A stretch of DNA of 64,000 nt from an uncultured Aminicenantes bacterium. Lineage in GTDB: Bacteria > Acidobacteriota > Aminicenantia > UBA2199. Positions 12,283-51,570 of this stretch are shown here, in pieces. The translations under genes were made by a program, and so were the position numbers. The DNA is taken from contig CBDAFS010000061.1 in the NCBI GenBank assembly GCA_965195285.1, positions 1 through 64,000 on the forward strand, read 5' to 3'. The stretch's first letter is position 1, and each line of letters opens with the position of its first letter. Under the pieces are notes generated by a model. That model searched no databases. It saw nothing but the letters and a program-made list of their open reading frames with translations, and had not been told where the DNA came from.

Positions 12283-12457
12283 GGGTTTTGGGGAAATCCC
12301 GGTTTCTCTTACCCAATGGTCATGAAACTATTTTTAAAATTGTAGCACTTTGAAACATAGAGAAATCTAAATCAAAATGTCAAGGCCTGGCACTGAAGAT
12401 CAGAATGTCTGCACCTGAGGTTAAGGTAAAGGTTGAGGTGAAGTGAAAAACAGACAT

Positions 12458-12537
12458 GTAGAGGCAAGCGGCGGCTTGCCCTCAATATTGCACAAATATC
12501 GATATTTCAAGCCGGGCGAATTGCCATTCGCCCCTAC
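12458..12537. repeat. GTAG-type REP doublet (REPIN-like), copy 1
   Basis: GTAG-AGGCAAGC-GGCG-GCTTGCCC ... GGGCGAAT-TGCC-ATTCGCCC-CTAC; 77/80 identical to 18834-18913. Confidence 0.85.
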
Positions 12538-12677
12538 TGCAATCCTCTCACGACTAACGATTTATGCCTTTTGATTCACTCAACCCCCAGATCCCATATC
12601 CCAAATCCCTCTTAACCTTTGCCTGTTATTGAGATCAACAAACAAAAACTTGTTTGTCAACCCCTGTCCCCGATAAT

Positions 12678-14129
12678 TTACTGCTGGCTGTGGGTAAAAT
12701 ATATGATGCTTCCGGCTTTGGTAGTTAAATAAATATTACCTTCATAATCCAGAGTGATATCTCCGTAACCTGGCGGTATCTGAAGCGGAATTGAAGGCTC
12801 CCAGGTTGATCCACGATCAATTGAACGACGGTAAAAAGCTCCACCACCGGAGCGATAGTAATAAAGGTTGACATTTCCTGCGTCATCTACGGCCAGTGCG
12901 GCCTGCAGAAAATAACTCGTATGATCTGCCAGGCTCATTACCCCCTGCCAGTTAAGTCCGCCGTTATCGGATCTCCTGAACAAAATATGATATATATTGT
13001 TAATTTGTTCCTCCCAAATGATATATACAGCTCCCAACCTATCAACAGCAATATCAGGATATCTGAACTCAACATCGTTGAAAGACAACATAATCGGATT
13101 TCCCCAACTTACTCCAAAGTCCGGAGAATGGTTAAAAAATATCTGGCTGGAATTAGAAGTAAGACTAGAATCAAGCCATACTACAGAAACCCTTCCACCG
13201 GTATCCACAGCCATTCTCTCCAGTCTGGAATGTTCGGGAGTATTGCTTATATTTACAGGTGCGCTCCAGCTACTTCCAGCATCGTCAGAATGAATAAAAA
13301 AGATATTGCACTCAGCAGTCAACATATAGCTGTTGAATACCACCGCAATTTTGTCAATATTATAGTTGTAAAGTCCAATATCGGAGTATTTGGCATAAAT
13401 GGCAAAATTCCAGGTTAAATTAATCAGAGAACTCCAGGAATCACCCCGGTCAGTGGAGCGCAAAAAATATAGATCATAGAGGCCGTCTGAGGATGTTTGT
13501 CTGGCATAAACGATATTAATATTCGATGTATCAACTGCAATCGCGGGATAAAAGTTTCCCAAATTGCAAGGCTGGGGTAGCTCATGCATCTTAATCCAGG
13601 TTAATCCTAAATCTTCAGATCGAATAAAATACACATAACCTTCAAGGTCAACCGGATCACATTCACCCCAGACAATATTTATATTTTTTTCAAGATCAAC
13701 ATCGATTTTTCCGTTTCTACTGATTGGACAATTCTGAGAAACCTGATCCGAGACCTTAAAATAATTGGGGAAATCATGCAGAAGCTTGACATTGAAATAT
13801 AATGTACCGGATTTTTTACCGCTGACAGTGTCCCAGGCCACAACCGGAATGGACACTCCTCCGGTGGCAATATCCTGGAGAAAGATCCGGCACTGTAACT
13901 CTTCCTCGCTCATGACGACCGTTGATTTCTGGATTCCGTTAAAAACAATAACCGTGCTTTCTGTAAAATTTGCTCCGGTTGCTGTCAGAGTAAAATCGGG
14001 CATATGGTATACCTTGGTGTCCGGTGTTAAAGATGACAAGGTCAGCACCGTATTTGGACAACTAACCAGAATTAACAATAAACCCAATCCAATAATAGAC
14101 AATACAGCTTTATGCATTTTTCGCTTCAT
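12678..14129 (-). CDS. Lipoprotein with IPT/TIG-like domain and BNR/Asp-box (sialidase-fold) beta-propeller, paralog A
   Basis: Lipobox LVSC; FTLTATGANF...VIVFNG; six Asp-boxes (RSEDLGLTW, RSTDRGDSW, HSDDAGSSW, HSPDFGVSW, RSDNGGLNW, RSIDRGSTW). Confidence 0.85.
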   Translation of the reverse strand: MKRKMHKAVLSIIGLGLLLILVSCPNTVLTLSSLTPDTKVYHMPDFTLTATGANFTESTVIVFNGIQKSTVVMSEEELQCRIFLQDIATGGVSIPVVAWDTVSGKKSGTLYFNVKLLHDFPNYFKVSDQVSQNCPISRNGKIDVDLEKNINIVWGECDPVDLEGYVYFIRSEDLGLTWIKMHELPQPCNLGNFYPAIAVDTSNINIVYARQTSSDGLYDLYFLRSTDRGDSWSSLINLTWNFAIYAKYSDIGLYNYNIDKIAVVFNSYMLTAECNIFFIHSDDAGSSWSAPVNISNTPEHSRLERMAVDTGGRVSVVWLDSSLTSNSSQIFFNHSPDFGVSWGNPIMLSFNDVEFRYPDIAVDRLGAVYIIWEEQINNIYHILFRRSDNGGLNWQGVMSLADHTSYFLQAALAVDDAGNVNLYYYRSGGGAFYRRSIDRGSTWEPSIPLQIPPGYGDITLDYEGNIYLTTKAGSIIYFTHSQQ

Positions 14130-15594: not shown

Positions 15595-17061
15595 TTACTG
15601 CTGGCTGTATATAAAATAGATGGAGTTACCGCTCACGATAGTCAAATAAATATTTCCTTCATCATCCAGAGTGATGTCACCGCTGCCCGGTGGCGGCAAC
15701 GGCATAGAGATCGCCGGTTCCCAGTTTCTGCCGCGATCAATTGAACGCCTGAAAAAACAGCCGTCGCTATTGTAGTAATACAAATTTACATTTCCGGCAG
15801 TGTCGGCGGCAATGACTGCCTGCATCGAATTACTCGAATTTTCTGCAAGGCTCACCGGTGCTGTCCAGGTATTGCCGTCATCATCCGAATGTCTAAATGA
15901 AACAGTGTATATATTATTATCTCCTTTCTGTTCCACCCATACCGCATAAACACACCCGGGCTCTCCGACTTCGACATCGGGGTATCTGAATTCAACAGGG
16001 TTGTAAGACAGCAACATCGGATTTCCCCAGGTTGCTCCAAAATCCGGAGAATGATTAAAGAATGTTTCTTTAGAATTAGTACCGGAAATATTATCCAGCC
16101 ACACCACATAAATTTCTCCCCCGGTATCTACAGCCATTCTTTCCAGCCTGGAATGTTCCGCAGTATCGTTTACTTTTACCGGCAAACTCCACGAAGCTCC
16201 GCTGTTACTGGAATGGACAAAATAGATGTCGCATTGGGCACTCCACATATAGCTGTTGAATACCACCGCTATATTTTCAACATTATTGTATTCGCTAATT
16301 TTAATATCGGAATATTTGGCATAACTTGTATATCCCGATGTCACATTCAGGGGAACGGTCCAGTGGATTCCCTCCCCCTCCTGGGAGCGCAAAAAATACA
16401 GGTCATAGGTGCCGTCTGAGGTTGTCTGCTTGGCATAAACGATATTAATATTCAACGATCTGTCAACTGCAATCGCAGGATAAAAGTTGCCCAAATTCGC
16501 AGGCTGGGGTATCTCCTGGCTATTGATCCAGGTTAATCCTAAATCTTCCGAACGAATAAAATAGACATAACCTTCCCCATCAGGCGGTTGGCCTTCCTCC
16601 CAGACAACGTTGACGTTTTTTTCATAATCCACTGCAATTTTAGCGCTGCGAGTGATAGGGCAATATTGGGAAAGGCTTGAGCTTGCCCGTACAGGACCGG
16701 AAAACGTATGCACCTGCTCGACCCTAAAGTACAAGGTATTGGATTCATTACCGCTGACTGTATCTCTTACCACAACCTGGAGGGACGCCCCCCCGATGGC
16801 AATATCCTGGGGATAGATCTGGCAATTTAACTCTGTGCTGCTCACAAAGACCGTTGTTTTCTGGATTCCGTCAAAAACAATAACCGTATCCGATGAAAAA
16901 TCAGTCCCGGTAGCTGTCAGGGTAAATTCGGGCATATGGTATACCTTTGTGTCCGGTGTCAACAATGACAGGGTCGGCACCGGATTGGGACAATTTATCA
17001 AAACAATAACCAAACTCAACCAGAATAAAGATAGAAAAATCTTTTTAATTTTTGTTTTCAT
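15595..17061 (-). CDS. Lipoprotein with IPT/TIG-like domain and BNR/Asp-box beta-propeller, paralog B
   Basis: Colinear with 12678-14129 over its whole length (LTPDTKVYHMP, GYVYFIRSEDLGLTWI, EHSRLERMAVDTGG, final SQQ). Confidence 0.85.
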   Translation of the reverse strand: MKTKIKKIFLSLFWLSLVIVLINCPNPVPTLSLLTPDTKVYHMPEFTLTATGTDFSSDTVIVFDGIQKTTVFVSSTELNCQIYPQDIAIGGASLQVVVRDTVSGNESNTLYFRVEQVHTFSGPVRASSSLSQYCPITRSAKIAVDYEKNVNVVWEEGQPPDGEGYVYFIRSEDLGLTWINSQEIPQPANLGNFYPAIAVDRSLNINIVYAKQTTSDGTYDLYFLRSQEGEGIHWTVPLNVTSGYTSYAKYSDIKISEYNNVENIAVVFNSYMWSAQCDIYFVHSSNSGASWSLPVKVNDTAEHSRLERMAVDTGGEIYVVWLDNISGTNSKETFFNHSPDFGATWGNPMLLSYNPVEFRYPDVEVGEPGCVYAVWVEQKGDNNIYTVSFRHSDDDGNTWTAPVSLAENSSNSMQAVIAADTAGNVNLYYYNSDGCFFRRSIDRGRNWEPAISMPLPPPGSGDITLDDEGNIYLTIVSGNSIYFIYSQQ

Positions 17062-18380: not shown

Positions 18381-18390
18381 TAAAATGATG

Positions 18391-18412
18391 ATCAGGTCTT
18401 TCATTATTGACA
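18391..18412 (+). repeat. RAYT left-end-like site ATCAGGTCTTTCATTATTGACA
   Basis: TCAGgTCTTTCATTAT matches the RAYT inverted repeat TCAGtTCTTTCATTAT at 15/16; 10 bp after the stop at 18380. Confidence 0.7.
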
Positions 18413-18833
18413 TGAGTGGCTGAGAGCTGAGAGGATAAGAAGTTCTGAAGTCAAGAACAAAACAACTTGTTATTCAGTTGTAATTCAATAGTAACTCATA
18501 GTAATTCAGTTGTCATAAATAGTTTTTACAATAGAATTACCATGAATAACGCGAGTGCAACGAGCAAATTACCACGAATTACCATTCACGGCTTACGCCT
18601 TACGACTCACGATTTTTGCTTCTTGATTCACAAGCCCCCAACCCCTAAATCCCAAATCCCGCTTTACCTTTACCTCAGATTAAGGGGGGTAGTCATTAGG
18701 GTCGGTTCTTGAATCTTGAATTTGATTCAATTTGTCAAGGCCTGGCACTTTGGGTAAATGGGAACATGAGTCAATGGGTGGATGGGTTAAGGACTAGGAA
18801 AAGGTATAGGTTTAGGTAAAGAGAAATTGAAAT

Positions 18834-18913
18834 GTAGGGGCAAGCGGCGGCTTGCCCTCAATATTGCATAAATATCGATATTTCAAGCCGGGCGAATTAC
18901 CATTCGCCCCTAC
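18834..18913. repeat. GTAG-type REP doublet (REPIN-like), copy 2
   Basis: GTAGGGGCAAGCGGCGGCTTGCCC...GGGCGAATTACCATTCGCCCCTAC. Confidence 0.85.
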
Positions 18914-19031
18914 AGCTTCTCATCAACACATCTACCCATCTTCCAATTCACGAGTCAGCAAAATATCATTGCTGGGTGCAGGTGGCTTGATGCTGAGGTA
19001 AAGGCAAATGTAAAGTAAAATCGCCCTCTTC

Positions 19032-20185: not shown

Positions 20186-20511
20186 AATCCCATCAGACCA
20201 TATCTAACTTTATTTGGCCTGCATTGCAAAAGTAAAGGCATGGCACCATTAGCTAAATGAGTCTATGGGTCAATGGGTGGACGGGGGAGAAATTGTAATA
20301 GATCCGTTTGTTGACGTCCTGCCTTCCCCATCTACCCATTCACTCTTCTTCCCATTTACGAGTTAAAGATTCAGTACAATAAAACCATTATGTAAAGGCA
20401 TGTCCCCCCAGAGGTCGATGGGGGAATGAGTCAATGAGTAAATGGGTTAATGGGTGAATGAGTTAAGGACCAGGAAAAGGTATAGGTTAAGGTAAAGTGA
20501 AAAATGGACAG

Positions 20512-20558
20512 GTAGGGGCAAACGGCGGGTTGACGGGCGAATTGCCATTCGCCCCTAC
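20512..20558. repeat. GTAG-type REP doublet, internally deleted copy 3
   Basis: GTAGGGGCAAACGGCGGGTTGAC joined to GGGCGAATTGCCATTCGCCCCTAC. Confidence 0.75.
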
Positions 20559-20703
20559 AGCCTCCCATCAACTCATCTTCTCATCTACTAGTTAGAAGAA
20601 TTCTGCTGCTGGAAGCTGGTGGCTGAGGTAAAGGTAAAGGTAAAGTAACATTTATCCTTATGCTCCATCTTCAAGCTGCAAAACACATGACCTGATTGCT
20701 TTT

Positions 20704-46213: not shown

Positions 46214-47098
46214 ATGAAAAGTAACCAAAAACAACATTCCGGATATGTGGCGCTTATCGGCAGGACCAATGTGGGAAAATCAACTTTTTTAAACCACATA
46301 TTAAAAACCAAAGTATCTATCGTCTCCCACTCCCCTCAAACCACCCGGGAACAGATTCTGGGAATTAAAACCACTTCCAGGGGGCAGATCATATTTTTTG
46401 ATTCTCCCGGCATACACAAACCCCATTTCAAATTGAATGAAAAGATGATGAAGGCGGTCCACCATTCCCTCATGGATGCCGATATCATTCTTTATTTTTT
46501 GGAAATCGGGGATAAACGAGAGGATGCGTTCATTTTGAATTTGCTTAAGGAACTGAATAAAACAACCCTTCTGGTAATCAACAAAATCGATAAGATCAAT
46601 AAAGCCAGGGTGCTCAGTCAGATAGATAAGCTCAAGGATCTGTATACCTGGAGTGAGATCGTTCCCCTATCAGCCCTGAAAGGGGATAACGTTGATAGGC
46701 TCGAGGACCTGATATTCGAGTACCTGCCCGAAAATGATCATCTGTTTTCCCCTGAGGAATTCACCCGCCAGTCAGAAAAATTCTATATAGCCGAACTGAT
46801 CCGGGAAAAAATACTGAATCTGTCACGAGATGAACTCCCTTTTACCACCAGTGTTAAAGTTGAGGAGATTACGGAAAAGGACAAAGTCTTCTATATCCGG
46901 GCAGAAATTTATGTGGAATCCCTGTCCCAGAAAAAAATCATTGTCGGTAAACACGGAACCCTGGTCAAACAGATCGGTGAAACCGCCAGAATCGATATTG
47001 AAGACTATTTTGACAAAAAAGTGTTCCTGGATCTGTTTGTGAAGGTGGTTCCCAACTGGCGCAATTCACCCCATGTCCTGAAGGACATTTTTGATTGA
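46214..47098 (+). CDS. era: GTPase Era
   Basis: GRTNVGKST, PQTTR, DSPG, NKID, KH domain ending VKVVPNWR. Confidence 0.96.
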   Translation: MKSNQKQHSGYVALIGRTNVGKSTFLNHILKTKVSIVSHSPQTTREQILGIKTTSRGQIIFFDSPGIHKPHFKLNEKMMKAVHHSLMDADIILYFLEIGDKREDAFILNLLKELNKTTLLVINKIDKINKARVLSQIDKLKDLYTWSEIVPLSALKGDNVDRLEDLIFEYLPENDHLFSPEEFTRQSEKFYIAELIREKILNLSRDELPFTTSVKVEEITEKDKVFYIRAEIYVESLSQKKIIVGKHGTLVKQIGETARIDIEDYFDKKVFLDLFVKVVPNWRNSPHVLKDIFD

Positions 47099-47126
47099 CA
47101 ATTCAGAAAATGGAAAATGAGGAAAA

Positions 47127-48063
47127 TGGGGTCAGTTCTTTCATTATAGCGTTTTTTTTAGTATACTTGCTTCATGGCTAGACCATTAAGAATTGAATTC
47201 CCCGGTGCTGTGTACCATATTACAACCAGAGGTAATGAAAAAAAGGCAATATTCAGGAATGATCGGGATCGAGAAAGATTTATTGAAATTCTATCACTGG
47301 TTGTTAAGAGATTTAAATGGATATGTCATTCATACTGTTTAATGGACAATCACTATCATCTATTAATTGAGACACCAACAGCAAATTTATCGAGAGGTAT
47401 GAAGCAGTTAAATGGGATTTATACCCAGAGTTTTAATCGTATACATAACAGAGTTGGACATTTGTTTCAAGGTAGATATAAATCGATTTTAATAGAGAAG
47501 GAATCATATCTGCTTGTATTGAGTAGATATATGGTGTTAAATCCAGTGAGAGCAGGTGATGTAAATCATCCGGGAGAATGGCCCTGGAGCAGTTATGGTG
47601 CAATAATTGAAGAAGTGAAAAAACCTGATTTTTTAACTGTTGATTGGATATTGTCACAGTTTTCCTCAGACAAAAAAAAGGCTGTGGAAGAATATGAACT
47701 ATTTATCATATCAGGTTATAAGACAGGGTTTCCATATAATGAATTAGTCGGACAAATTTTATTGGGTAGTGAAGGGTTTATAAAGAAGGTGAATGGTTAT
47801 GTAAGTCAAGAATCAAGAAATAATATGAAAGAGGTGCCCAGAGAACAACAACTCAGTATATCGACAACACTGGATGAAATATTTCAGAAGAATACGAGAA
47901 AAGGTGTCACAAGGAATAAGATAATCTGCGAGATATATCACAATAACGATTTTACAATGAAGGAAATCGGTGATTATTTAGGATTGCACTACACGACTAT
48001 TAGTAGAATTATAAACAGTTATGAGAAGAAGAAAAAAATGCTATAATGAAAGAACTGACCCCA
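47127..48063 (+). mobile_element. RAYT-like Y1 HUH transposase element bounded by perfect 24-bp terminal inverted repeats
   Basis: TGGGGTCAGTTCTTTCATTATAGC (47127-47150) and GCTATAATGAAAGAACTGACCCCA (48040-48063); visibly more AT-rich than its flanks; no obvious target duplication. Confidence 0.85.
47174..48046 (+). CDS. rayT: REP-associated tyrosine transposase (RAYT, Y1_Tnp) with C-terminal HTH
   Basis: MARPLRIEFPGAVYHITTRGN, HUH motif LMDNHYHLL, GHLFQGRYKS, catalytic Tyr in SRYMVLNPVRAG, WSSY; HTH TMKEIGDYLGLHYTTISR. Confidence 0.92.
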   Translation: MARPLRIEFPGAVYHITTRGNEKKAIFRNDRDRERFIEILSLVVKRFKWICHSYCLMDNHYHLLIETPTANLSRGMKQLNGIYTQSFNRIHNRVGHLFQGRYKSILIEKESYLLVLSRYMVLNPVRAGDVNHPGEWPWSSYGAIIEEVKKPDFLTVDWILSQFSSDKKKAVEEYELFIISGYKTGFPYNELVGQILLGSEGFIKKVNGYVSQESRNNMKEVPREQQLSISTTLDEIFQKNTRKGVTRNKIICEIYHNNDFTMKEIGDYLGLHYTTISRIINSYEKKKKML

Positions 48064-48074
48064 AAGTTTAAGTC

Positions 48075-48659
48075 ATGATGGTATCAAACCGGAAACGATT
48101 TGTCTTTGTGCACATCCCCAAGACCGGGGGATCCTCCATATTCCGGGCCCTGAGTCCCTACAATGACGCACCGGATACCGACGAAAACCGGCATCTTGAA
48201 CTGGTTGAAATCTACAACAAGTATGGGTACCTGGCCGGAGATAGTGACGGCTCAGCCGGTGAACTGAAAAAATATTTCAAATTTGCCTTTGTCAGAAACC
48301 CATGGGACCGGGTGGTTTCCATGTATTGCTACCGGCTGAGCAATCGGGAAATTCCCCCAGACTTGCCCTTTTCAGAATTTGTTCTGAAGCGCCGCCAGTA
48401 TCCCTTCGGGATACACCGGGAACAGGTTAAATTGATCGAAGATCAAGACGGAAAAATCGCCCTGGATTTCATCGGCCGGCTTGAAAATCTTGAAAAAGAC
48501 TGGTCAACTCTTCAATCCCGGCTCGGGATCAGTTCCGGACTTCCCCACCTGAAACAAACCTCACACCGGCATTATCAAACCTATTACAACCGGGAATTAA
48601 GGGACGAAATCGCTGATCTGTACCCCCGGGATATCGAGACCTTCGGATACTGCTTCTGA
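48075..48659 (+). CDS. Sulfotransferase family 2 protein
   Basis: FVHIPKTGGSS (5'-PSB), FVRNPWDRVVSMY (3'-PB), FIGRLENL, DIETFGY. Confidence 0.9.
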   Translation: MMVSNRKRFVFVHIPKTGGSSIFRALSPYNDAPDTDENRHLELVEIYNKYGYLAGDSDGSAGELKKYFKFAFVRNPWDRVVSMYCYRLSNREIPPDLPFSEFVLKRRQYPFGIHREQVKLIEDQDGKIALDFIGRLENLEKDWSTLQSRLGISSGLPHLKQTSHRHYQTYYNRELRDEIADLYPRDIETFGYCF

Positions 48660-48786
48660 ATACCGGTTTCCAGACCCGACCCATGCTTCAATCTTAACCG
48701 CTTTTAAACATTCAAAACCATTTAGAAAGCTTGACTAAATCGGAAAAATGAGAGAGAATACTGGATTATTACTTTGGGAGTCGGAT

Positions 48787-51570
48787 ATGTCGGAGCAAAA
48801 CAAACCAAATTGGAAAAACACCTTGAATCTGCCTGAGACTGCTTTCCCCATGAAAGCACAACTGAATCAGAAGGAACCCCAGATTTTAAAGAAATGGGAA
48901 GACCTGAACATATATGAAAAAATCCTGGAAAAACGCCAGCATAATCCGCTATACATATTGCATGATGGTCCTCCCTACGCGAATGGCAACATCCACCTGG
49001 GACATGCCATGAACAAAATATTAAAGGATTTTGTTATCAAGTCAAAATCAATGGAGGGATTCCGGGCCCCCTATGTTCCGGGCTGGGATTGTCACGGCCT
49101 CCCCATTGAACACAAAGTCGATCAGCAGTTGGGTTCAAAAAAAGCGGAGTTGGACGTACTTGAAATCCGTCAAAGATGTAAAGAATATGCTGAAAAATAC
49201 CTGGAAATACAGAAAAAGGAATTTGTCAGGCTGGGAATTTTCGGTGATTGGGAAAATCCCTATACCACCCTCGATTATTCATACGAGTCAACTGTTATCC
49301 AGTATTTCAATTCTTTTGTAAAAAATAACAGTGTGTATCGCAGAAAGAGACCGGTTTACTGGTGTACTTCCTGTACTACTGCACTGGCTGAAGCTGAAGT
49401 TGAATATACCGATCACGCCTCTTCATCAATATATGTTAAATTTCAATTGAAAGATATCCCGGATTTCCTCAATGAATTTAGGCATAAGGAGATCTTTATA
49501 TTAATCTGGACCACTACCCCCTGGACCATACCAGCCAATCTGGCCATTGCCGTTCATCCTGATTTTGACTATTCGCTTTTCGAGATGAACGGTGAATACT
49601 ACATCACTGCCAGCCGGCTGGTTCCCGTTCTCAGTGATCTGGTGGACCGCCCCCATAAAAAGCTCAAGAAATTCAAGGGCAGCCAGATGAAGGGATTGAA
49701 CACCACCCATCCCCTGTATGACCGCCATTCGGTAATCATCACAACGGATTACGTCATACTGGATCAGGGAACTGGCTGCGTCCACACTGCCCCGGGACAT
49801 GGAGAGGAAGACTATTGGGCCGGACTGGAATACAAACTCGATATCTATTCACCGGTGGGTCCCACCGGAGCCTTTGATGCAACCACGGGAAAATATGAGG
49901 GGAAAAATATTTTTGATGCCAACCCTGAAATCATCCGGGATTTGGAAGCCAATAACCGTCTCATCCGGGAAGATAAAATCGATCACTCCTACCCCCATTG
50001 CTGGAGATGTAAAAAACCGGTTATTTTCAGGGCCACCGAACAATGGTTCATCGCCATGGATAAGGCTGAGTTGAGATCCAAGGCTCTAAAAGAAATCAAA
50101 CAGGTGAAATGGCTGCCGGACTGGGGTGAAGACCGGATTTTTAAAATGGTTGAAACCAGGCCTGACTGGTGTATATCCAGACAGCGGGACTGGGGAGTTC
50201 CCATCCCGGTTTTTTATTGCAAACAATGTGAGCAACCACTGCTCAAGCCGGAAGTTATTGAACGGGTCGAATCCATATTCAAGAAACATGGTTCAAATAG
50301 CTGGTATGACCGGGATGTATCCGAATTCATATCAGAATCCACAACCTGTGCGAATTGCGGTCACGGTTCATTTGAAAAGGGTTTTGATATTATGGACGTA
50401 TGGTTCGAATCCGGGTCATCATTCGGCATTCTGGACAAATACCCCGGACATCAATTCCCATCGGATATGTATCTGGAGGGGGGTGACCAGTACCGAGGCT
50501 GGTTTCATTCATCCCTGCTGGTTGCGGTGAGCGCCAGAGGTACTTCACCCTATAAAACCGTCATCACACATGGTTTCACCCTTGACTCAGAGGGGCGGGC
50601 CATGTCCAAATCAATGGGCAATGTGATAGAGCCTCAGAGCATCATCAAGGAAAAAGGAGCCGAGATACTCAGGCTTTGGGTGGCCATGGTCAACTACCGG
50701 GAAGATATAAAACTGGGTGATGATTTACTTATAAAAATCACCGAAAGCTACCGCAATATCCGCAATCGCTGGAGATTCATGTTAGGAGTTCTATCTGACT
50801 TTAAACCCGGAGAACACTCGGCCGAGGACGATAAGTTGGGACAATTGGACCATTTCATCCTCCATAAATGGCAGCAGGTCAAAGAAAAAATTCTGAAAGC
50901 CTACCAGAATTACGAATATCATGTAATCTACCACACCATTTCAAATTTTTTCACCATTGAATTAAGTTCCTTCTATTTGAATCTAATGAAAGACAACCTA
51001 TACTGCAACCTTCGGAATTCCGTCCAACGAAGAGCCACCCAGACCACCATTTTCAAGCTATTGAAAGAATCGCTTCTACTGCTGGCCCCCATCATGTCAT
51101 TTACCTCAGAGGAAGCCTGGGAGTGTTTACCGAAATTTCCGGATCAAGAAGCCTCCATCCACCTGCATCTGTTTCCGGAAACGGAAGAAAAGTATCTGAA
51201 GGGAATTGATGATAATAAATGGGAGCAGATCACTTCCTTACGGAATAAAATTTACAAAGAAATCGAAGCTTCCCGAAACCAGAAAACCATCGGTGAGTCA
51301 CTTGAAGCAGAAGTAACTCTGGATCTTGACCCTGAACCGTATGACCTGGTAGCCGATAATCTGGAGTTGTTCAAGGAAATTCTGGGAGTGGCAGCAGTCC
51401 ATATCACCAAATCGGATAGACAAAAAATTTCCATCCGAAAATCAAAAGGCATCAAATGCCCTCGCTGCTGGAACTGGTATGATAATGTGAATGCTGCCAG
51501 CCAGGAACCCCAACTCTGTAAAAGATGTGAGCGGGTGGTAAAGGAGATGAATATTGAGCCTGAATCTTAA
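48787..51570 (+). CDS. ileS: Isoleucine--tRNA ligase (type 1)
   Basis: LHDGPPYANGNIHLGH, GWDCHGLPIE, WTTTPWT, WCISRQR, AMSKS, C-terminal zinc finger CPRCW; ATG 48787 after GGGAG. Confidence 0.97.
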   Translation: MSEQNKPNWKNTLNLPETAFPMKAQLNQKEPQILKKWEDLNIYEKILEKRQHNPLYILHDGPPYANGNIHLGHAMNKILKDFVIKSKSMEGFRAPYVPGWDCHGLPIEHKVDQQLGSKKAELDVLEIRQRCKEYAEKYLEIQKKEFVRLGIFGDWENPYTTLDYSYESTVIQYFNSFVKNNSVYRRKRPVYWCTSCTTALAEAEVEYTDHASSSIYVKFQLKDIPDFLNEFRHKEIFILIWTTTPWTIPANLAIAVHPDFDYSLFEMNGEYYITASRLVPVLSDLVDRPHKKLKKFKGSQMKGLNTTHPLYDRHSVIITTDYVILDQGTGCVHTAPGHGEEDYWAGLEYKLDIYSPVGPTGAFDATTGKYEGKNIFDANPEIIRDLEANNRLIREDKIDHSYPHCWRCKKPVIFRATEQWFIAMDKAELRSKALKEIKQVKWLPDWGEDRIFKMVETRPDWCISRQRDWGVPIPVFYCKQCEQPLLKPEVIERVESIFKKHGSNSWYDRDVSEFISESTTCANCGHGSFEKGFDIMDVWFESGSSFGILDKYPGHQFPSDMYLEGGDQYRGWFHSSLLVAVSARGTSPYKTVITHGFTLDSEGRAMSKSMGNVIEPQSIIKEKGAEILRLWVAMVNYREDIKLGDDLLIKITESYRNIRNRWRFMLGVLSDFKPGEHSAEDDKLGQLDHFILHKWQQVKEKILKAYQNYEYHVIYHTISNFFTIELSSFYLNLMKDNLYCNLRNSVQRRATQTTIFKLLKESLLLLAPIMSFTSEEAWECLPKFPDQEASIHLHLFPETEEKYLKGIDDNKWEQITSLRNKIYKEIEASRNQKTIGESLEAEVTLDLDPEPYDLVADNLELFKEILGVAAVHITKSDRQKISIRKSKGIKCPRCWNWYDNVNAASQEPQLCKRCERVVKEMNIEPES

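Follow-up and report, generated by a model that had tools for sequence, protein, structure and literature searches.

Positions 47127-48063 of the 64,000-nucleotide stretch of DNA analysed here (contig CBDAFS010000061.1 of an uncultured Aminicenantes bacterium; "the window" throughout) form a 937-bp (0.94-kb) cassette in which a single gene lies between two inverted repeats. This element is a TIRtron, a new member of a class that was described in 2013 and classified in 2018, and it opens no new class. With good confidence it can be specified further as a cassette with terminal inverted repeats (TIRs) of the GGGGWSAS type, carrying a TIRYT of the TnpA-Y1 class 2, subclass 2.1, whose C-terminal helix-turn-helix (HTH) domain resembles domain IV of DnaA, and working by a mechanism that we infer. 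Di Nocera, De Gregorio, and Rocco (2013, BMC Genomics 14:522, PMC3733652) gave the name TIRYT to genes that resemble REP-associated tyrosine transposases (RAYTs; REP, repetitive extragenic palindromic sequence) and have long TIRs unrelated to REPs, and called the resulting units TIRtrons. In the portions of that paper on which we draw, GGGGWSAS is common to many TIRs, not to all, some TIRs overlap gene ends, and some make up moderately abundant families with single, dimeric, or grouped copies. The cassette is alike in that a RAYT-like HUH/Y1 gene lies between long, non-palindromic inverted repeats with GGGGWSAS, in that only a short and constant distance separates these repeats from the gene or they overlap its 3' end, and in that their family is moderately abundant as singles, dimers, and groups.

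A Cassette Bounded by Perfect Terminal Inverted Repeats

An inverted-repeat scan of positions 46500-48700 returned one strong pair (47127-47158 and 48032-48063), 32 nt long and 97% complementary. The outer 24 nt of this pair (47127-47150 and 48040-48063) are perfect, with two matches in the window and none in 100 shuffles. The tip, GGGGTCAG at 47128-47135, stands at the outer end of both arms and fits GGGGWSAS. The arms are neither self-complementary nor GTAG-tagged, and folded singly as single-stranded DNA (ssDNA), on both strands, they form no hairpin (minimum free energy −0.7 to −1.1 kcal/mol; z 0.64, −0.01, 0.09, and −0.23), which rules out hairpin ends for 47127-48063. No direct repeat is seen at the flanks (...GAGGAAAA/TGGGG ... 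CCCCA/AAGTTTAA, with the slashes marking the ends of the element), and no fixed target word was found outside the tips, where there is only an A- or purine-rich bias and a weak A-T directly before GGGG. No sigma-70-like promoter is predicted at or around the left TIR on the + strand, and the total of predicted sites is not above that of shuffles. Inside the element the GC content falls to 0.32-0.35; era has 0.39-0.44, and the sulfotransferase gene and ileS have 0.40-0.51. An earlier note, made from the letters of the window alone, had described exact 24-bp reverse-complement ends that extend to about 32 bp with one mismatch, a stop codon within the right repeat, ends without obvious hairpins, no target duplication, and AT-richness relative to era and ileS, and all of these descriptions agree with what was measured.

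A Y1/HUH Transposase with a C-Terminal HTH Domain

The single gene encodes a protein of 290 residues that matches Pfam Y1_Tnp over residues 13-119 (E 2.3e-14) and, weakly, HTH families at residues 249-286 (MarR_2, E 5e-4). It scores 80 bits against the NCBIfam model NF047646, "REP-associated tyrosine transposase", which is exactly the cutoff of 80, and 17.7 bits against the IS200 model NF033573, far under the cutoff of 55. Across 34 aligned homologs, Y119 and N123 never vary, P124 is conserved in at least 90%, and the spacing from H62 of the HUH motif to Y119 is 57 residues (R-Y119-M-V-L-N123-P124). Y102 was ruled out as the catalytic residue because it is F in 12 of the 34 homologs. The AlphaFold model of the protein (pLDDT 86.7, pTM 0.79) has as its best structural match 4er8_A, the E. 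coli RAYT on a REP hairpin (Foldseek E 6.9e-7; Z 18.2, root-mean-square deviation (rmsd) 2.1 over 155 residues), and the TnpA proteins of IS608 and ISDra2 rank after it (Foldseek E about 1e-4; 2vhg_A, Z 10.3). The last 60 residues of the model match DnaA domain IV (8btg_A, Z 7.5; 1j1v_A, Z 7.1, rmsd 1.9 over 59 residues; 3pvp_A, Z 7.0), with sigma region 4 ranking lower (Z 5.8-5.9). The earlier note had recognised a Y1/HUH transposase with an extra C-terminal HTH, and this reading is supported.

At the level of sequence, a search of the PDB with the single protein gave nothing below E 0.2, and a profile search gave weak matches (4er8, E 0.028; HTH proteins, E 0.04-0.8). The homolog search scored at least 8000 proteins; the best among the matches listed is 88% identical, and the named homologs among them are called "REP element-mobilizing transposase RayT" or "transposase". 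Several homologs carry a precomputed HTH_23 (PF13384), and some HTH_38. A 200-nt contig from a metatranscriptome library (X14) lies inside the gene (47613-47812) with zero differences; contigs of RNA libraries may contain DNA, and expression is not claimed.

Quentin, Siguier, Chandler, and Fichant (2018, BMC Genomics 19:475, PMC6006769, likewise cited from portions of its text) assigned 20 of the 26 TIRYT examples of the 2013 paper to TnpA-Y1 subclass 2.1, which is characterised by a C-terminal HTH (Bac_DnaA_C, HTH_23, or HTH_28) and no REP nearby. In class 2 they place the catalytic tyrosine in Y-x-x-x-N-P, at an HuH-to-Y distance near 58-67 residues. The protein described here shares with subclass 2.1 the Y-x-x-x-N-P context, a serine adjoining the tyrosine (LSRY), a size among the longest of the family, a C-terminal HTH related to Bac_DnaA_C, HTH_23, and HTH_28, and the absence of a REP beside the gene; its placement in subclass 2.1 rests on the tyrosine context, the spacing, and the HTH.

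The TIR as a Dispersed Repeat Family

Copies of the TIR are scattered through the genome, nearly all of them between genes, and form a repeat family to which hairpin doublets without a gene and decayed copies of the gene also belong. At up to 3 mismatches the genome matches the 24-mer 16 times (none for a reversed-pattern control), and at up to 5 mismatches 24 times (one for the control). Across copies, the conserved block measures about 26 nt (GGGGTCAG.TCTT.CATT.TA.CATT), with an outer edge that is sharp at the first G and, outside it, A-rich sequence without a fixed word. All but one of the 24 copies lie outside open reading frames (ORFs) of at least 100 aa, often 16-43 nt downstream of a gene. 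They occur as solos, as doublets (on contigs C31, C49, and C54), and with gene remnants; for the 67-bp doublet of C49 the predicted fold has −13 kcal/mol (z −4.5). The genome contains a single intact gene of the lineage. Tip-to-tip arrangements of the kind expected of a circle junction were looked for in the genome, and the four matches to a loose pattern included none that adjoins TIR sequence.

Some solo and doublet copies (C31:81036-81086, C55:110558, and C26:1146) carry a variant tip, GGGGTCAGGTCTTGCATT. The same tip belongs to the TIR of a 58%-identical TIRYT in a genome of the same genus (locus L057, G002:C137), a gene with one in-frame TAA; no intact gene with a GGGGTCAGGTCTTGCATT-type TIR was found in the present genome. 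Other copies lie within a few bases of TIRs of another lineage, of the GGGGACGGTGC type (C26:1146-1169, C24:7327, C31:162086, and C31:170044). Such mixed-lineage clusters correspond to what the 2013 paper calls "grouped", and they may mark hot spots of insertion. In addition, contigs of runs X4 and X5 join the two arms (47146 or 47150 to 48037), with a short side of 20 letters, and may be doublets from elsewhere.

Family Genes with Repeats of Their Own

Including the gene in question, the genome holds 15 full-length family genes, the others being 29-42% identical to it. Flanking inverted repeats of their own are found at 14 of the 15, with scores of 17.5-29.5 against a shuffle maximum of at most 16, and only at C30:32191-33075 was no flanking inverted repeat detected beside a full-length gene. 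The repeats are of the types GGGGTCA[AG]..., GGGGTGACGGTGC..., and GGGGACGGTGC..., 13 genes having GGGG-type TIRs. When up to 4 mismatches are allowed, 3-22 copies of each repeat are counted in the genome (controls 0-1). Counted among the 14 is a REPtron-like case, a 223-aa gene without the HTH tail (C8:11353-12024) whose palindromic, REP-like repeat (AAATAGG...CCTATTT) has 11-14 copies.

Homologs occur in 25 of 30 related genomes, and those examined mostly have GGGGTCA-type TIRs. A metagenome set added 80 loci with proteins 46-55% identical, of which 69 have flanks long enough to evaluate; 54 of these passed a strict inverted-repeat test, and among the 54 significant repeats GGGGWSAS is present in 37 and GGGWSA in 50. 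An inverted GGTCAGGTCTT pair, 850-1350 bp apart, is found at 73 of 84 loci (the 80 from metagenomes and four from relatives). The usual element length among homologous loci is 900-945 bp, and both this length and the distance from TIR to gene are conserved. On comparison of these sequences, the TIR tip is conserved together with the gene across distant homologs; the suspicion that homologs might lack such repeats is countered by the 54/69 and 73/84 loci and by 14 of the 15 genes of the genome itself. No target duplication is seen in 69 elements, where matches at k = 2-7 equal those of shuffled partners, so that target duplication is ruled out both at 47127-48063 and in its homologs. On one contig two 916-bp copies, 93.1% identical, lie in unrelated flanks (49-50% identity), and therefore whole units of this clade get copied.

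Covariation of the Inner TIR with the HTH Domain

Because the objection of Quentin et al. to an HTH that reads the TIR, namely that GGGGWSAS is unlike a DnaA box, concerned the tip only, it is answered by a relation between the HTH and the inner TIR (positions 14-25). This covariation, which the earlier note had proposed to look for, was sought by Mantel and partial Mantel tests on distances in which shared ancestry is ignored. Of 48 elements whose ORF is intact, nine were dropped for mis-registered arms, and the remaining 39 were compared. Inner-TIR distance correlates with HTH distance (r 0.594). The correlation persists given the catalytic core (r 0.435, p 0.001), while the core given the HTH yields 0.017 (p 0.43); given an equally divergent middle region, it is 0.37 (p 0.001), and the reverse is 0.15 (p 0.031). 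The inner TIR thus tracks the HTH better than it tracks the catalytic core, which suggests, as support rather than proof, that the HTH reads the TIR. The proposal of the earlier note that the HTH may bind the TIRs thereby gains indirect support. It is a point of difference from the published account of subclass 2.1 that the lineage-specific inner TIR, and not the tip, co-varies with the HTH here.

These data also bear on the idea that an unrelated DDE transposase moves the TIRs as those of a miniature inverted-repeat element, in which the Y1 gene is a passenger. TIRs of 25-32 nt together with short gene-less derivatives do resemble the classical pairing of an insertion sequence (IS) with a miniature inverted-repeat transposable element (MITE). 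Such an origin is nevertheless extremely improbable, as it would leave unexplained the missing target duplication here and in 69 elements, the recurrence of one TIR tip beside the Y1 gene at 73 of 84 loci drawn from many metagenomes, the repeat of its own at 14 of the 15 family genes, and an inner TIR that tracks the HTH of the protein itself. Membership among classical DDE ISs and MITEs is likewise ruled out, there being no target duplication and the only gene being Y1/HUH.

A Foreign Segment in the era-ileS Interval

The element is foreign to the gap between era and ileS. A CBS-domain gene and era are syntenic in relatives, and a TIRYT adjoins era at none of 28 era loci of relatives. In three family-level relatives (G011, G004, and G014), ileS directly follows era; in a genome of the same genus (G001, C75), two other genes on the opposite strand lie between them; and the nearest orthologs of the TIRYT (58, 56, 54, and 51% identity) are on other contigs. 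The gap as a whole (47099-48747, compared with loci L085, L035, L038, and L039) is accordingly variable: empty in three relatives, filled by two opposite-strand genes in G001, and holding the TIRtron and a GC-richer sulfotransferase gene here. The earlier note had spoken of an era-ileS site; the element does lie within that interval, but its direct right neighbour is the sulfotransferase gene at 48075-48659, and ileS starts only at 48748.

Contigs from related strains show the same locus in other states. Run X6 shows the empty state: one of its DNA contigs, 274 nt long at a depth of 10.7 and with 6 differences over 163 nt, comes from a strain about 96% identical and passes from 47102, behind era, through 24 other letters to 48072, the start of the sulfotransferase gene. 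The full state is probably represented by runs X1 and X3, which contain 1.00 and 0.96 of the sampled words of the stretch. A remnant state is found in a contig of run X14 that consists of era, the same spacer, and the last ~50 nt of the element (48014-48063, 6 differences), followed by unrelated DNA. Where X4-X6 have no contigs over the stretch, absence cannot be concluded. An empty site in relatives, which the earlier note had asked after, is seen both where era and ileS are adjacent (G011, G004, G014) and where X6 joins era to the sulfotransferase gene, and the gene is not vertically inherited at this locus, given the 0/28 era loci and a strain about 96% identical that lacks it.

Just outside the left tip, a 14-nt identity, AAAATGAGGAAAAT, is shared between L108:498-516 and 47104-47127 (E 0.085 in that small set). 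A shared era locus was ruled out as its source, L108 being without era, in GC-rich DNA, and behind a different gene. Many element flanks are purine-rich and Shine-Dalgarno-like, and in some the inverted repeat reaches about 10 nt past GGGG; the true termini may lie beyond the GGGG tip.

The history of the locus bears on a second alternative, in which the inverted repeats serve a vertically inherited gene of regulatory type only as operators or terminators, its HTH product acts as a repressor, and the other copies are sites of its regulon. The left arm 15 nt before the start codon, the right arm over the stop codon, the likeness of the HTH to DnaA domain IV and sigma region 4, and the intergenic position of the copies would all fit. 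Vertical inheritance does not hold at the era locus, however, and HUH and Y-x-x-x-N-P, invariant in 34 of 34 homologs, would be needless in a pure repressor; copies also occur as 51-67-bp back-to-back doublets and around gene remnants, and no + strand promoter is predicted at the left arm. We regard this alternative as very improbable.

A further alternative is a domesticated, essentially immobile RAYT-type gene whose protein disperses only single and doublet TIRs, in the manner of REPINs, the flanking arms being no more than the nearest members of the family. That there is one intact copy per lineage, with 15 family genes 29-42% identical, recalls the RAYTs of Bertels et al. 2017 (PMC5581495, cited from part of its text); gene-less doublets that fold into hairpins do exist, and domestication of class 2 proteins is discussed in the portions of Quentin et al. 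used here. The presence elsewhere of decayed gene-bearing copies with the same TIR (C3:1315-1828, and right ends on C11 and C20) is hard to reconcile with an immobile gene, as are its absence from era in 28/28 loci of relatives and in the strain about 96% identical, the two whole 916-bp units (93.1% identical, in unrelated flanks) of a homologous lineage, and the conserved element length and TIR-to-gene distance. It is therefore an unlikely account of the cassette, which we continue to treat as a TIRtron.

Duplications of the Tip and Its Flank

Among 65 elements with 40-nt flanks, GGGTCA recurs in 8 left flanks and TGACCC in 10 right flanks, where chance would give about 0.56 per category. Every one of these flanking copies has the same orientation as the tip next to it; inverted copies are absent. 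Tandem duplications of a unit made of 6-12 flank bases and GGGGTCA account for many of them, as in L163 (both ends), L139, L168, and L169; in some duplications 12-20 nt of the tip are included. By reading of the sequences, about 11 such cases occur among 18 direct pairs in the genome itself, with an example on C15 that runs to four iterations. Behind 48043, the right tip and flank are duplicated over 25 nt in one contig of run X4. The word stem "duplicat" is absent from the main text of PMC3733652. These duplications may be footprints of cleavage and rejoining, products of slippage at a bound protein, or extra binding sites.

Table 1. Coordinates of the element, its neighbours, and related copies. 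Positions without a contig name refer to the window; names beginning with C are contigs of the same genome, and those beginning with L are homologous loci.
Feature	Position	Strand	Description or basis
Left TIR	47127..47158	+	Outer 24 nt perfect; arm ends 15 nt upstream of start codon
TIRYT gene, 290 aa	47174..48046	+	RAYT-like Y1/HUH core, linker, C-terminal HTH; ORF, Pfam, NCBIfam, structure model
HUH motif H60-Y61-H62	47351..47359	+	Invariant in 34/34 aligned homologs
Likely catalytic tyrosine Y119	47528..47545	+	Context Y-x-x-x-N-P (RYMVLNP); alignment of 34 homologs
C-terminal HTH domain, residues about 231-290	47864..48043	+	Follows disordered linker 217-229; model helices 233-289
Right TIR	48032..48063	-	Covers last 15 nt of gene, stop codon 48044-48046 included
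"Stutter" outside left tip	47106..47131	+	GAAAATG three times (third after AG), into GGGG tip; read from sequence
Segment missing from X6 contig	47103..48071	.	TIR-to-TIR element with 24 nt of flank on the left and 8 nt on the right; 24 unrelated letters instead
era	46214..47098	+	Left neighbour, context only; terminator-like hairpin 47073-47088
Sulfotransferase gene	48075..48659	+	Right neighbour, Pfam Sulfotransfer_2; separate variable gene; adjoins era in strain without element
ileS	48748-51570		ORF list
Degenerate, tip-less solo TIR-like copy TCAGGTCTTTCATT	18388..18413	+	14/14 positions of variant TIR core; sequence comparison
51-nt back-to-back TIR doublet	C31:81036-81086		Genome scan
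67-bp TIR doublet, two copies	C49:8974-9040 and C54:301-367		Homologous over arms and spacer
TIR-bounded 514-bp remnant	C3:1315-1828		Deleted internally, with stop codons; 61% identity in N-terminal part
Right-end fragments of element	Contigs C11 and C20		
Tip-plus-flank duplications, own genome	C15 (about 155-189), C18:138, C23:1428, C53:37644, C55:71763, 80770, 110543, 112274	- (C15)	
Further elements with tip-plus-flank duplications	L103, L094, L125, L117, L158, L142, L096		

Relation to Known Systems

The suggestion that the cassette makes up a distinct mobile class did not survive comparison with the literature, the names TIRYT and TIRtron dating from 2013 (PMC3733652) and subclass 2.1 from 2018 (PMC6006769). 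As far as the 2013 text goes, the present case does not differ in kind; this genome is richer, with 15 full-length genes (13 of the GGGG type) against three in K. versatilis. What is new here is the empty-site polymorphism, the lack of target duplication over 69 elements, and the tip-plus-flank duplications.

With the E. coli RAYT (TnpA-REP, 4ER8) and its REPs, BIMEs, and REPINs, the element shares the catalytic fold (Z 18.2), a gene between inverted copies of a dispersed intergenic repeat, hairpin doublets, and one gene copy per lineage. It differs in that its repeat unit is non-palindromic and lacks the GTAG tag, that the protein has an extra HTH, and that the whole gene-bearing unit appears to move. 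A classical RAYT or REPtron is ruled out by the non-palindromic arms without GTAG and by a score that barely reaches NF047646 (80 bits, cutoff 80). With the IS200/IS605 group (TnpA of IS608 and ISDra2), it has in common the HUH/Y1 fold and the lack of target duplication, but here there are no subterminal hairpins, TIRs are present, the tyrosine context is Y---NP and not Y---Q, and there is no tnpB; membership is ruled out on the hairpins, the TIRs, the tyrosine context, and the NF033573 score (17.7 bits, cutoff 55).

The 12-21 kb Array and Other Repeats of the Window

The earlier note had further seen in the element the likely engine of an array at 12-21 kb of the window. This was not borne out, the array consisting of paralogous genes and other repeat families. 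Outside the element, no copy of the TIR was found in the window at up to 3 mismatches, nor on the contig at up to 5, and the degenerate copy at 18388-18413 (Table 1) is the only link between the TIR family and the array. The paralogous genes at 12678-14129 and 15595-17061 are about 76% identical, and the repeats of the array comprise GTAG-tagged palindromes such as GGGCGAATTGCCATTCGCCCCTAC (20 genomic copies), the motif GGCCTTGACAAAT (32 copies), and hexamer-based GAGGTTAAGGTAAAGG repeats (72 matches).

The GTAG-tagged REP palindromes occur as inverted doublets (GTAGAGGCAAGC...GCTTGCCCTC, a spacer, and GGGCGAAT...ATTCGCCCCTAC) at 12455-12540, 18831-18916, and 20510-20560, one of them present 20 times in the genome, which thus contains a REP/REPIN-type family as well. 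Another repeat, CAGGCCTTGACAAAT, lies on the minus strand at 12375, 14247, 15487, 15572, 17182, 18730, 21092, and 56336, upstream of minus-strand genes of the array, and has 32 copies genome-wide. It contains TTGACA and looks like either a shared promoter element or a distant relative of the TIR (GG[TC]CAGGCCTTGACA).

Proposed Mechanism and Implications

Like its relatives, the enzyme would be expected to act on ssDNA, for example on the lagging-strand template. Annealing of the two arms, within an element or a doublet, would produce one long stem that stands in for the hairpin of REP and IS200 systems, and the HUH/Y119 centre would cut and rejoin the DNA at the conserved GGGGWSAS tip. The HTH tail would read the lineage-specific inner TIR, giving each co-resident lineage a specificity of its own. 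Binding at the left TIR would probably also regulate the gene itself, because this TIR ends 15 nt from the start codon. Put more broadly, TIRtrons might be active, autonomous single-strand transposons that use a mechanism new for HUH/Y1 enzymes, in which the arms anneal (as a panhandle, or as a hairpin in doublets), the core nicks at GGGGWSAS, the HTH reads the inner TIR, and the tip duplications are footprints of cleavage and rejoining or extra binding sites; this broader proposal is offered tentatively, and we hold it to be doubtful as a whole.

A number of observations weigh against reading the cassette as a mobile TIRtron of this kind. There is no sign of recent transposition in this genome, because the lineage has one intact copy and its nearest paralog is 42% identical. 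Fifteen of the 69 evaluable loci fall below the strict inverted-repeat threshold, and 11 of 84 lack the anchor pair. The Mantel tests take no account of shared ancestry, and nine of 48 elements were dropped from them. The likeness to DnaA domain IV, at Z about 7, is middling, and Pfam Bac_DnaA_C is not matched. The left TIR also lacks a predicted + strand promoter of the sigma-70 type. The empty allele of X6 is not the product of a clean excision or insertion, as 24 + 8 nt of flank are also replaced, and a recombinational exchange of the segment 47103-48071 could account for it. Finally, a full-text literature search found no biochemical work on any TIRYT, and the cleavage site, strand, and substrate are for this reason all matters of inference.

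TIRYTs are among the largest branches of Y1/HUH transposases, with at least 8000 scored homologs here and, according to the portions of PMC6006769 cited, subclass 2.1 in 14.9% of strains. The genome described here offers a natural test bed for them, as it combines many co-resident lineages that have their own TIRs, gene-less doublets, and one locus that is full, empty, or a remnant among related strains. A division of labour, in which the tip would serve catalysis and the inner TIR the HTH, is offered for testing. If the proposed mechanism is true, a single 3.3-Mb genome could house about a dozen orthogonal lineages side by side by virtue of the specificity of the HTH.

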